From the NCBI RefSeq assembly GCF_026626665.1, contig NZ_JAPNKE010000002.1:1549204-1613203 (forward strand): a stretch of 64,000 bases of DNA, read 5' to 3'. The notes below the pieces were generated by a model that searched no databases, was not told the origin of the DNA, and saw only the letters and a list, made by a program, of their open reading frames with translations. Origin of the DNA: Nannocystis pusilla (GTDB lineage: Bacteria > Myxococcota_A > Polyangia > Nannocystales > Nannocystaceae). How positions within the stretch are numbered: the stretch's first letter is position 1; each line of letters opens with the position of its first letter. The translations under genes and the position numbers were made by a program. Below, piece by piece: positions 7,465 through 40,572 of the stretch.

Positions 7465-8632
7465 ATGCGGGACGAGATGCTGCCGTCTCGCGTCGTTCTC
7501 GCGTGGTCCTTCGTGCTCGTCGTCGGCTGCTACTCGGGCGTCGCGGAGGTGACCGAGAGTATCGGCGCGCCCGAGACCGCGAGCGAGGCGACGAGCACCG
7601 GCGCGAGCGCGGCGAGCACCGGACCGGGGACGAGCGACGCGAGCGCGCCGGGCACCGGCGAGGCGTCGACCGCGGAGGCGCCGACGAGCACGAGCGTCGC
7701 GGAGACGACGACCACGGGGCCGGACGAGGTGTCCTCGGGGCCAGGTCCGACCGACAGCGGGACGTCCGGCGCGGCCTCGACGACCGCCGGCGACGTCGGC
7801 ACCACCACCGGCGAGCCGGTCGATCCGGCGGCGGAGGTGTGCGCGCTGGACGGCGGACCGGACGGACATGTCTGAAGGGACATGGAGCGGGGCGGTCGCC
7901 GGCTGTCAGGCGGGCGACACGGGCGCGCCGGGCCGCGACAACGCGCTCAAGCTGATCAACCTGTACCGCTGGCTGGCGGGGCTGCCGGCGGTCGGCCACG
8001 ACGCCGGGCTCAATGCCAAGGCCCAGCAGTGCGCGCTGATGATGCACGCCAACGGGCAGCTGTCGCACGACCCGCCCATGCAGTGGGACTGTTACAGCGC
8101 CGACGGGGCGCAGGCGGCGAAGAACAGCAACATCTCGTCGACGCCGGGCGTGGTCGCGGTCGACCTCTACATGGTCGATCCCGGCAATCCGACGACCTTC
8201 GGCCATCGGCGGTGGATCCTCTCGAACGGGTTCGGGCCGGTCGGGCTCGGGTCGACGGCCGTCAACTCGTGCATGTGGGTGATCGGCGGGCAGGGCGGCG
8301 GCGACGCGGCGTGGACGGCCTGGCCGCCGCCCGGGGTGGTGCCGATCGACGCGATCCACGTGCCCGAGGTGCCGTGGGCCAACGTCGACGAGACGGGCTG
8401 GACGATCCAGAGCGACGCGATCGACCTCGGCGCGGCGCAGGTGACGATCCGCGAGGGCGGGGTCGACCTGCCGGTGAAGACGACGGCGCTCATGGGCGGG
8501 TTCGGCTCGGCCAGCGCGATCGCCATGACGCCGCAGGGCTGGACCTCGGAGGCCGGCAAGACCTACACGGTCGAGGTGAACGGGGTGCCGCAGCCGTTCA
8601 GCTACGACGTGCAGGTGGTCGCCTGCCCCTGA
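7465..8632 (+). CDS. Lipoprotein with an S/T/G-rich linker and a CAP (SCP/PR-1-like) domain. It is split into two ORFs by a frame break at 7868-7880.
   Basis: Signal peptide plus lipobox (LVVGC); a low-complexity TSTGASAASTGPG linker; ORF1 ends ...ALDGGPDGHV*. ORF2 (7868..8632) has the CAP-like motif GHRRWILSNGFGPVG and conserved cysteines. The junction lies exactly in a 2-unit GGACATGTC array. Confidence 0.55.
7861..7887. repeat. Two-unit motif array at the frame junction of the CAP lipoprotein gene.
   Basis: ggacggaCATGtctgaagggaCATGgagcg. Confidence 0.75.
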
Positions 8633-8680
8633 GGGACATGTCCGAACGGGCATGGCCGAGCGGGCATGTCCCGACGAGCA
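8621..8680. repeat. Four-unit 14-bp array with a GGRCATGYCC core, between convergent genes.
   Basis: gagGGACATGTCCgaac|GGGCATGGCCgagc|GGGCATGTCCcgac|GAGCATGCTCgatc. Confidence 0.85.
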
Positions 8681-8689
8681 TGCTCGATC

Positions 8690-9147
8690 AGGCAGCCACG
8701 ACGCGGGTCAGGCGGACCTCGATGGCGCGCGTCTCCTCGCCGCTCGGCTCGATGTTGGTGGCCTCGATCACGAGCTCGTCGCCGTCGCGGCGGAAGGCGG
8801 TGCGCCAGCCCCAGCGCTGGTCGCCGGCGCGGTAGCTGCCGAGGACCGCGATGGCGGGGCCCGCGGGCCCGGTCGACCACAGGGGAGGCGCCGGTGTGGA
8901 AGGTGTCGATCCAGTACAGGGTGTGCTCGTGGTCGTCGACGCCGAGGGTCATCTCGCCGTGGTGCAGCTTGCCGGTGCACACGCCGTCGTAGCGGAGGCG
9001 CGCGTAGCGGCCCTCGAGCAGCGACTCGATCTGGACGCGCCAGTCGCCGACGTCCGGCTCGCCTCCCGCGGGGTCGAGCCAGGTGCGCGCGGGGCCGGTC
9101 CATGAGCCTGTGAGTTCGGTGAGGGGGTGGGCCATGACGCCGGTCAT
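8690..9147 (-). CDS. Small conserved hypothetical protein (~150 aa) with one apparent frame break at a GGGCCCCGCC run.
   Basis: N-terminal MAHPLTELTGSWTGPARTWLDPAGGEPDVGDWRVQIESLLEGRYARLRYDGVCTGKLHHGEMTLGVDDHEHTLYWIDTFHTGASPVV. After ~8870 it continues in another frame as ...AIAVLGSYRAGDQRWGWRTAFRRDGDELVIEATNIEPSGEETRAIEVRLTRVVAA*. Confidence 0.4.
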
Positions 9148-9200
9148 AAGCGATCGGCGGCGGGCGATCCACCGGTGTGGGGAGTGCTACAGTGACGGCG

Positions 9201-39092: not shown

Positions 39093-39590
39093 CTAATCGA
39101 TCGTATAGGCGGTGCAATACGAGGAGTACAGCGCGCTCTCGCCCGACAGCGGCACGAAGGTGACCGTATTCGGCGCCATCCACGCCGACAGGCCATTGCG
39201 CGGCGCGTACCCTCCCGTGTGATACACCGTCCACGCCACGCGCGCCGTGACCGACGGGGGCCAGTTGTACACGCTGCAGCCCTCCGCGCTCATCGTCGAC
39301 AGGCGGACGCGCGGCTGGAACAGGATCTGCCAGTCGATCGAGCAGCACACCGATTCCGGCGGATCGAGCGACGGTTGGTCGGCCGCGGCGAGGGCGAGCT
39401 CCTCGTGGGCCGGCCCCGCGGGCGCGTCGTCGGCGTCTTCAGCGTCTTCGGCGAGCTCGGCGTCCTCGGCCGCGAGCTCGGCCTCCAGCGCGGGGTCGTC
39501 ACAGCCGGCGATCGCCACGGCGAACAGCCCGGCGAGCGTCGAAGCCCGGGCACGCCGAGCAGATCCGATGAGAAGTAGATGTCGCTGCAT
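39093..39590 (-). CDS. Small lipoprotein with an acidic linker and a Cys-containing domain.
   Basis: MQRHLLLIGS…AVAIAGC lipobox; an EAELAAEDAELAEDAEDADD linker; …CCSIDWQILFQPRVRLSTMSAEGCSVYNW…. Confidence 0.4.
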   Translation of the reverse strand: MQRHLLLIGSARRARASTLAGLFAVAIAGCDDPALEAELAAEDAELAEDAEDADDAPAGPAHEELALAAADQPSLDPPESVCCSIDWQILFQPRVRLSTMSAEGCSVYNWPPSVTARVAWTVYHTGGYAPRNGLSAWMAPNTVTFVPLSGESALYSSYCTAYTID

Positions 39591-39874
39591 GGGTAAACTC
39601 CTGAAATCGATGAGTGCAGGGCGCCTGGACCGGCGACACGCGCCGACCCCATGATGACGAGCGCCGTTGTTGGGTAGGTGCTCGGCAGGCGCCAAACAAT
39701 TGCCGGTGAAGCGTATTTCCGCCGTTGCGCCGCCGGTCGAGCGGGGCTGCGGCGACCGTGCTGGCGCTCAGGGCCCCTGCCTCGACGTTCGCGCCGACCG
39801 GCCTCGTTCAGCTCCACAGCACGTGCAAGCGCGGCGAGTGGTCGCGTCCGCGGACTCGGTCTATCTTGCCGCGT

Positions 39875-40501
39875 ATGAAGCTCCACGGATTCTGGCGCAG
39901 CACGGCCACCTGGCGGGTGCGGATCGCTCTGGCGTACAAAGGCCTGACCTACGAATACCTGGCGGTCGACCTGCTGACCGGGGCGGGGGCGCAGCACTCG
40001 CCCGAGCACCGCCGGCTCAACCCGATGGCGCAGGTGCCCGTGCTGGAGATCGAGGAGGGGCTGTATCTGACGCAGTCGGTCGCCATTTTGGAATACCTCG
40101 AGGAGCGCTGGCCGACGCCGCCGCTGCTGCCGCGCGATCCGCTGGCGCGCGCGGGTGCGGCAATTGACGGAGGTGATCAACGCGGGGATCCAGCCGCTGC
40201 AGAACACGGGGGTGCAGCGGCACGTGGAGTCGCTCGGGGCCGATTCGAGGGCGTGGATCCACCGGTTCGTCGGCCCGGGGCTGGCGGCGCTCGAGGCGAT
40301 GACGCGGCCCCTGGCCGGGCGGTTCAGCGTGGGCGACGCGTTGTCGTTCGCCGACTTGGCGCTGGTGCCCTAGCTGGCGTTCGCCCGCCGGTTCGGCGTC
40401 GACGTGACGGGGTTGCCGACGCTGCTGCGCGTCGAGGCCAACTGCGTCGAGCTCGATTCTAGAGTGAGCCACGCGGACGTGCAGCCGGACGCGCCGCGGT
40501 A
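39875..40501 (+). CDS. maiA: Maleylacetoacetate isomerase / GST-zeta-like protein, disrupted by a frame break near 40150 and an in-frame TAG at 40371.
   Basis: MKLHGFWRSTATWRVRIALAYKGLTYEY…NPMAQVPVL…YLTQSVAILEYLEERWP. Then in a second frame: …RQLTEVINAGIQPLQNTGV…SVGDALSFADLALVP-TAG-LAFARRFGVDVTGLPTLLRVEANC. The canonical sequence is ...CLVPQ(V/L)..ARRFGVD, so Q is expected where TAG occurs. Confidence 0.6.
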
Positions 40502-40502
40502 A

Positions 40503-40572
40503 TCATGGACATGTTCCACGGGGCATGTCCTCGGGGACATGCTTATTCGGGCATGGCGCGAGGGTCATGCCT
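40503..40572. repeat. Five- to six-unit 14-bp array with a GGRCATGYCC core, between convergent maiA and tetR-like genes.
   Basis: CATGgaCATGttccacggggCATGtcctcggggaCATGcttattcgggCATGgcgcgagggtCATGcctgg. Four consecutive intervals are exactly 14 bp. Confidence 0.85.

Follow-up and report, generated by a model that had tools for sequence, protein, structure and literature searches.

What lies between convergent genes in the GC-rich genome of Nannocystis pusilla, and why does it lie there? The question was raised by a 64,000-nt stretch of this genome (contig NZ_JAPNKE010000002.1, positions 1,549,204 to 1,613,203; G+C 69-75%), called the window below and numbered from its first nucleotide, in which an earlier note had described repeat arrays at six of about 11 convergent junctions. 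All six arrays were present, and all six junctions proved to be convergent. The arrays are built from one short palindromic unit repeated at a fixed phase, and they sit downstream of stop codons in general. On our best reading they form an apparently undescribed family, centred on Nannocystis, that resembles the REP (repetitive extragenic palindromic) elements and bacterial interspersed mosaic elements (BIMEs) of other bacteria. Their most likely role, which we regard as evenly balanced between being right and being wrong, would be that of transcribed 3'-end hairpins serving both strands. Little is understood of how transcripts end in myxobacteria, whose genomes are very large and rich in G+C.

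The repeat unit and its arrays in the window

The six arrays share, in register, a 10-bp near-palindromic core, GGRCATGYCC, followed by a variable 4-nt spacer, which together make a 14-nt unit. A position weight matrix built from 153 units gave nnGGRCATGYCCnn with unconserved flanks, and the spacers between cores were mildly enriched in A/T. Distances between CATG sites in the window were exactly 14 nt in 21 pairs, and any other distance from 4 to 27 nt occurred 0-3 times. In ~290 kb of Nannocystis DNA (the enrichment sample defined in the next section), arrays contained 2-6 units and the 14-nt spacing was exact in 165/175 within-array intervals. When the window was shuffled 100 times, 0.00 matches were expected for either a two-unit or a three-unit pattern, against 4 observed for each. 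CATG as such occurred 231 times in the window (~45 of them inside arrays) compared with 164 expected, and was barely enriched outside the arrays; single copies of the fuller core GACATGTC also occur outside them.

At least 11 arrays were found in the window, versus the six named earlier. They are given below together with two motifs inside genes; '.' marks a feature assigned no strand, and z is the z-score of the fold.

8634..8685, strand '.': four units (CATG at 8637, 8651, 8665 and 8679), + strand fold -37.8 kcal/mol, z = -3.8; between a CAP-domain gene (+, stop 8632) and a DUF1579 gene (-, stop 8688)
17577..17656, strand '.': six units (CATG from 17580 to 17650, each 14 nt), z = -7.6 on both strands; between a Ser/Thr-kinase/TPR gene (+, stop 17569, 7 nt before the array) and a TolB-like gene (-, stop 17727)
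22860..22897, strand '.': three units with degenerate half-units on both sides; between a ribose-5-phosphate isomerase gene (+, stop 22850) and a 314-aa gene (-, stop 22909)
27266..27317, strand '.': four phased units, of which the second is degenerate, with z about -4.5 for either strand; between a ~210-aa gene (+, stop 27255) and an N6_N4 DNA methyltransferase gene (-, stop 27290)
37179..37216, strand '.': two to three AT-richer units, z = -5.1; in the 271-nt convergent gap 37025-37295 between the genes of a 117-aa protein (+) and a 559-aa protein (-)
37255..37293, strand '.': three units with an indel in the middle one, z = -4.4; in the same gap, with its end 2 nt short of the 559-aa gene's stop (-, 37296)
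40507..40572, strand '.': five units, z = -4.5 and -4.0; between a glutathione S-transferase (GST) gene (+, end ~40502) and a TetR-family gene (-, stop 40565-40567, within the last unit)
4892..4943, strand '.': array in a tandem (+ +) gap, adjoining the start of an NMT1_3 gene (Pfam); the same array occurs in N. bainbridge and N. radixulma
34352..34389, strand '.': two to three units in a tandem (- -) gap, weak fold (z = -0.6); ~65-100 nt upstream of the start of a short-chain dehydrogenase gene
34630..34652, strand '.': two units with a spacing of 13, z = -5.4; same gap as the preceding array, 29 nt past the upstream stop
56052..56075, strand '.': two units, z = -3.1; tandem (- -) gap, 158 nt past a HAD-hydrolase stop
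7864..7887, + strand: perfect two-unit motif GGACATGTCTGAAGGGACATGG inside the CAP-domain gene; the motif is conserved, as part of the coding sequence, in the four other species aligned
419-442: two-unit motif within a gene

Thus the arrays credited to convergent junctions are there, but the tandem gaps of the window hold four more and genes hold two-unit motifs. Two of the spans given previously are corrected here. The stretch 17570-17727 contains the CATG array at 17577-17656, and its remainder includes a separate GC-rich hairpin at ~17667-17705. This second element is an inverted repeat (GTCCCCGGCG...CGCCGGGGAC, 17667..17705) near the TolB-like stop (-, 17727) and is distinct from the CATG array; its sequence is conserved in strain RBIL2, and the segment 17655-17730 folds with -48.2 kcal/mol (z = -3.6). 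The stretch 27256-27290 is the gene-free gap and the array itself covers 27266-27317, overlapping the methyltransferase gene's 3' end by 28 nt, so that the final 28 nt of this gene consist of array units.

Because the window contains frameshifts, callers based on open reading frames (ORFs) left large gaps in it, and genes were therefore called with a seven-state codon-usage Viterbi caller, which gave the same strand as the database gene calls for 91/92 genes. Flank orientation was also checked by database gene calls in orthologous loci and by Pfam on the window ORFs; at the 40507 array, for example, Pfam placed GST_N on the + strand and TetR_C on the - strand. A same-strand frame switch or an in-frame stop was observed inside the CAP, kinase-TPR, ribose-5-phosphate isomerase, methyltransferase and GST genes, which are single genes in relatives (7846-7848, ~16586, 22497-22512, ~28079, ~40147 and 40371-40373); at 7846 the window is short by 2 nt relative to four other species. 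These switches are probably indel errors of long-read assembly and not pseudogenes, and they are without effect on the strand assignments used.

Five convergent junctions of the window carry no array (gaps of 9, 44, 6, 197 and ~80 nt); among convergent gaps of at least 30 nt, 6/8 are occupied. The earlier note had suggested that other tandem repeats (42480-42677 and 59432-59512) stand in for arrays at two of these; they contain no CATG units, are unrelated, and their position is a coincidence. The two are:

42442-42689: 121-nt tandem duplication, 2.0 copies, 98% identical, spanning the end of a + strand gene in the 197-nt convergent gap; no CATG units
59415-59560: 58 nt x 2.5 repeat with coding signal on the - strand (probably coding), overlapping the ~80-nt gap; no CATG units

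The former could be either a real recent event or an assembly artefact.

Placement relative to stop codons

The earlier note had proposed that convergent, tandem and divergent junctions be compared for array content, and this was done across the genus. In 185,579 species genomes, a search for three GRCATG units phased at 14 nt returned at least 111 loci, at least 29 of them in Nannocystis (N. exedens, N. punicea, N. bainbridge, N. radixulma, strain RBIL2 and two metagenome-assembled genomes). The enrichment sample comprised the window and 29 scan loci, ~290 kb from seven Nannocystis genomes, with gaps of at least 30 nt tabulated where stated. In addition, five orthologous 22-kb loci were reached through members of the 90% cluster of the TolB-like protein, which is encoded at 17727-19826 (- strand) and is 100% identical to a protein of N. 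pusilla; these loci are copies of one region and hence mutually non-independent. Gaps with an array were counted as follows:

Window plus 29 scan loci: convergent 29/43, tandem 30/97, divergent 0/27
Scan loci, junctions outside the selection by the search pattern: convergent 14/25, tandem 19/64, divergent 0/19
Window alone, corrected for the GST gene: convergent 6/8, tandem 4-5 of ~27, divergent 0/8
Five orthologous 22-kb loci, database gene calls, all gaps: convergent 14/23, tandem 1/39, divergent 0/25

For the window plus 29 loci all pairwise differences were significant (Fisher test: convergent vs tandem, p = 8e-5; convergent vs divergent, p = 2e-9; tandem vs divergent, p = 2.5e-4). After normalisation to intergenic length, convergent gaps held 32 arrays vs 12.6 expected (p = 6e-8) and divergent gaps 0 vs 13.7 expected (p = 3e-7), whereas the tandem gaps, with 32 vs 37.7 expected, did not deviate significantly. 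The convergent enrichment is real and genus-wide.

Is convergence itself the variable that matters? Measured from the nearest upstream stop, the first core of an array lay at a median distance of 14.5 nt over all arrays. Sixty percent of arrays started no more than 20 nt after a stop, vs 31% under uniform placement in the same gaps, and in 200 simulations the observed value was never attained. In tandem gaps, most arrays began 0-40 nt past the upstream stop and ~150-430 nt from the next start. The arrays are located downstream of stop codons in general, a broader rule than convergence. Two independent 3' ends, each occupied at the tandem rate of 0.27, predict a convergent occupancy of 46%; the observed occupancy was 20/34 = 59%, no significant excess (p = 0.10). 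Hence the convergent preference mostly follows from association with 3' ends. The preference asserted in the earlier note was therefore upheld as an enrichment, but convergence is not its primary variable. A convergent gap is the type most often occupied because it has two gene ends and no promoter; a divergent gap has no gene end and was never occupied in the Nannocystis sample.

In sequence unselected for arrays (the window and the five 22-kb loci) the density was ~1.6-1.7 arrays per 10 kb, and scan matches were dispersed over multi-megabase contigs of the seven genomes; extrapolated to 12 Mb, this amounts to roughly 2,000 arrays per genome. That many repeats starting ~15 nt after stops make an obvious candidate for a general 3'-end signal. 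The densest cluster was seen in N. punicea (locus L027, 3672-4041), where one 551-nt convergent gap holds at least three separate arrays, or five by looser criteria.

Conservation, pairing and candidate roles

Four junctions were compared between species. An array was present in every Nannocystis species that keeps the flanking genes adjacent, with a varying number of units, and it was absent where the neighbouring gene differs. The counts were:

DUF1579/CAP junction: 4, 5, 4, 3, 4 units (four other Nannocystis species carry 3-5)
314-aa protein/ribose-5-phosphate isomerase junction: 3, 4, 4, 3, 2 units (2-4 in the orthologous arrays of four species)
TolB-like/kinase junction: 6, 5, 5 units (5-unit arrays in N. 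exedens and RBIL2)
Methyltransferase junction: array detected in five of six species

The 22860 array is missing in N. radixulma, and so is its neighbouring gene. At the methyltransferase junction of N. exedens the outer units align and the inner ones are degenerate, which places it below the array filter. Across orthologous units core positions were 75-100% identical, except for R (60%) and Y (71%), compared with 49-67% for spacers, figures that are dominated by the coding-overlapping methyltransferase junction; the 14-nt phase was kept despite the diverged spacers. The hairpin at the methyltransferase junction is kept in six species, with compensatory pairs at 2/19. Among the more distant relatives, whose TolB-like protein is 73-75% identical, no array was found by the set criteria in 66 kb, and close relatives had at most one weak array per 22 kb. 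None of the non-Nannocystis scan matches listed is a Nannocystis-type array; two pass the unit filter, both of them simple near-perfect tandem repeats. The repeat family is concentrated in the named Nannocystis species, though perhaps not confined to them.

Most arrays are predicted to form very stable RNA hairpins on both strands (z from -3 to -7.6). Two adjacent units give a ~10-bp stem with a 4-nt loop, while a lone 14-nt unit cannot fold; pairing occurs either between neighbouring units or in nested form (unit 1 with 3, unit 1 with 4). Single units are mostly non-self-complementary at positions -1/+4, reading GGACATGCCC or its reverse complement GGGCATGTCC (odds ratio 0.26, p = 7e-5). Many units are symmetric. 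Neighbours of the asymmetric types tend to complement each other (odds ratio 2.2, p = 0.045), adjacent units exceed random pairs in complementarity (p = 7e-4), and the folding of real arrays surpassed that of chimeric ones made from units taken from other arrays (mean z = -0.53, p = 4e-4). These effects are modest; they speak more for units pairing with each other than for a simple symmetric dimer site.

The mechanism that we consider most likely can be outlined as follows. An array would form the 3' tail of the transcript from the gene or genes upstream of it. Pairing of its neighbouring units would give stems of 10-12 bp closed by 4-nt loops, or else nested hairpins, and these would define or protect the 3' end of the transcript. 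Because the units are palindromic, one and the same array could serve both transcripts at a convergent junction. Several observations weigh against this proposal. No U-tract follows the arrays, with at least four T in the next 8 nt at only 4/70, so that they do not qualify as canonical intrinsic terminators. In tandem gaps, the sense and antisense strands folded better in 16 and 15 cases, respectively (p = 0.78), which gives no RNA-strand difference, and the sense strand showed no preference for units tolerant of G.U pairs (28 vs 19, p = 0.24). A hairpin function alone accounts for neither the conserved core nor the near-invariant 14-nt phase. A looser look at the more distant relatives yielded two weak arrays, one per metagenome contig (L113 5704-5741 and L112 13832-13855), both in divergent gaps, the opposite of the Nannocystis pattern. 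Finally, some arrays adjoin gene starts (4892-4943) or lie within genes (7864-7887). The 4892-4943 array adjoins the NMT1_3 start in three species, and in four cases the ATG within the CATG of the last unit is the apparent start codon of the downstream gene (window 4896; L002 3371; L032 3344; L119 18900). Of the products from such array-borne ATGs, one has a beginning that resembles a lipoprotein signal, and the start of another resembles an FAD-binding N-terminus.

We asked whether the arrays could instead be selfish or neutral repeats, propagated by a transposase or through slippage and gene conversion, that survive after gene ends and away from promoters and have no host function. This is possible but doubtful. 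Such an origin fits the high copy number, a distribution centred on one genus (29 Nannocystis loci among the 111 listed, the others being chance matches or simple repeats), the difference in unit number between species at one junction and the lack of a strand-specific RNA signature, and tolerance of insertion predicts precisely such a junction bias, as argued for REPs (PMC1525189). It does not fit the retention of arrays at all orthologous junctions examined, a core more conserved than the spacers, a 14-nt phase kept while spacers diverged, the co-adaptation of units within an array for pairing, or the closeness of arrays to the stop codon, which goes beyond mere promoter avoidance. Nor was a transposase present beside any array among the annotated genes, although no systematic search was made. 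No Y1 transposase was found among the Pfam-scanned window genes (part of the window) or the annotated genes of the orthologous loci, in each case without a search directed at REP-associated tyrosine transposases (RAYTs). An origin from phage or another mobile element was rejected: all 33 matches in viral contigs were chance matches in low-GC DNA, and the family is in no viral contig. Synteny among Nannocystis species is broken exactly at two of the four array junctions compared, downstream of the TolB-like gene and beside the ribose-5-phosphate isomerase gene (L117 12098-12239; L119 12101-12763; L121 12100-12720; L119 6957-6993), and by analogy with REPs the arrays may mark rearrangement hot spots.

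A function at the DNA level, in which a sequence-specific protein would bind the 10-bp palindromes and oligomerise at 14-bp spacing to form a roadblock to transcription in both directions, a supercoiling (gyrase-type) site or a nucleoid-organising site at gene ends, appears unlikely. E. coli BIMEs bind gyrase, IHF and Pol I, and MetJ binds tandem 8-bp palindromes cooperatively; these analogies, the near-invariant 14-bp phase (165/175), the full strand symmetry (sense and antisense behave alike) and the conservation of the core sequence, where a hairpin could use any sequence, all speak for it. However, units that are non-self-complementary at -1/+4 (odds ratio 0.26, p = 7e-5) are unexpected for a symmetric dimer site, the complementarity of neighbouring units is above chance, and a 14-bp spacing sets successive sites ~120 degrees apart round the helix. 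A specific form of this idea, that the arrays are phased landing pads for a putative sequence-specific protein, which would coat 2-6 palindromes at 14-bp spacing and make bidirectional roadblocks or insulators at gene ends, we judge to be quite improbable; if true, it would mean protein-based transcription ending in a genome that shows no U-tract terminators. That the arrays are low-complexity noise or assembly errors of a GC-rich genome is hardly credible, since, despite the probable indel errors seen as frameshifts in several window genes, shuffling yielded 0.00 expected against 4 observed matches per pattern and five other species, whose genomes were assembled independently, have the same arrays at the orthologous positions.

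The methyltransferase junction was considered separately. An orphan, conserved N6_N4 DNA methyltransferase has its last ~9 codons made of array units in five species (window 27290-27317; L117 3649-3676; L119 4070-4097; L120 2548-2575; L121 2397-2424), and type III Mod-like adenine methylases are the nearest relatives with a solved structure. The specificity of the enzyme is unreadable from sequence and CATG is hardly enriched outside arrays; a functional tie between array and enzyme was accordingly rejected and the adjacency treated as a coincidence.

Comparison with known systems and other features of the window

Short palindromic repeats found in high copy between genes are known from Escherichia coli, Pseudomonas and Stenotrophomonas, and the Nannocystis arrays resemble these REPs and BIMEs in several respects. 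REP families occur downstream of coding regions, mostly between unidirectional or convergent ORFs and rarely between divergent ones, and sometimes provide stop codons or lie inside genes (PMC3733652, PMC1525189); tolerance of insertion has been argued to be the cause of this placement (PMC1525189). The Nannocystis arrays likewise lie downstream of ORFs, in convergent and unidirectional gaps, and are rare in divergent ones, so the REP/BIME-like placement suggested in the earlier note was borne out. They also sometimes overlap stop codons or lie inside genes, and they are similarly species- or genus-specific. BIMEs are characterised in PMC2817692 as regularly spaced REPs of alternating orientation; the arrays share the regular spacing, and their two asymmetric unit types may tend to alternate, which is weakly supported (odds ratio 2.2, p = 0.045). 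In contrast to a REP of 20-40 bp, the Nannocystis unit has a 10-bp core and a 14-nt period, needs a second unit to form a hairpin, keeps an almost invariant phase and lacks a GTAG/CGTC tag at its end (absent from the position weight matrix of 153 units). Since such placement is already known for REP elements it is unsurprising in itself; the arrays are an unusually short and strictly phased addition to REP-like repeats, and could serve strain typing.

Bidirectional intrinsic terminators offer a second parallel, since a symmetric hairpin between convergent stops can serve both transcripts and the arrays start a few nucleotides past the stop. Unlike such terminators, the arrays are without flanking A- or U-tracts and their sequence is repeated genome-wide instead of being locus-specific. 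A canonical intrinsic terminator was ruled out by the missing U-tract, with the exception of the first hairpin of the 17577 array, which is directly followed by TTTTT. When the segment 8000-47999 was scanned for consensus terminators, hairpins followed by a T-run occurred at chance level relative to shuffles and none was at an array. The expectation that this GC-rich context offers few canonical intrinsic terminators thus held for this segment.

The DNA uptake sequences (DUS) of Neisseria and uptake signal sequences (USS) of Haemophilus are ~10-bp motifs over-represented genome-wide and often paired as hairpins after genes. The arrays likewise have a motif of ~10 bp paired in hairpins after genes. 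They differ from DUS/USS in that the Nannocystis motif is a palindrome in its own right and is arranged in phased arrays with as many as six units, with CATG barely enriched outside them, and we know of no link of these repeats to competence. CRISPR loci, which have repeats of at least 23 nt and unique spacers of about the same length, usually alongside cas genes, were rejected: here the period is 14 nt, the spacers measure 4 nt, and arrays of 2-6 units occur at ~11 places in 64 kb. No array matched Rfam 15 at the gathering score, and no paper on these arrays was found in the literature, where the core GGACATGTCC appears solely as a p53 half-site.

Some other features of the window were noted in passing. 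Both of its Rfam matches are to Sernc350, an 'antisense sRNA' of Saccharopolyspora, and run antisense to encapsulin genes; this family probably reflects conserved coding sequence. The genes in question, two adjacent ones at 50321-53061, specify encapsulin shell proteins of the SrpI-like type (family 2) in fusion with cyclic-nucleotide-binding domains. The region 1733-3005 has an atypically low third-position G+C, holds an ORF for a 290-aa STAND/AAA-type ATPase (2077-2949, - strand) and may be recently acquired DNA. Coding signal was seen in no frame of 53068-54212 (1145 nt) and 31235-31935 (701 nt), the latter containing GCGGGC-type simple repeats. At 54207-55871, tandem repeats of 96 nt code for a repeat protein rich in cysteine (DUF4215, four stretches).

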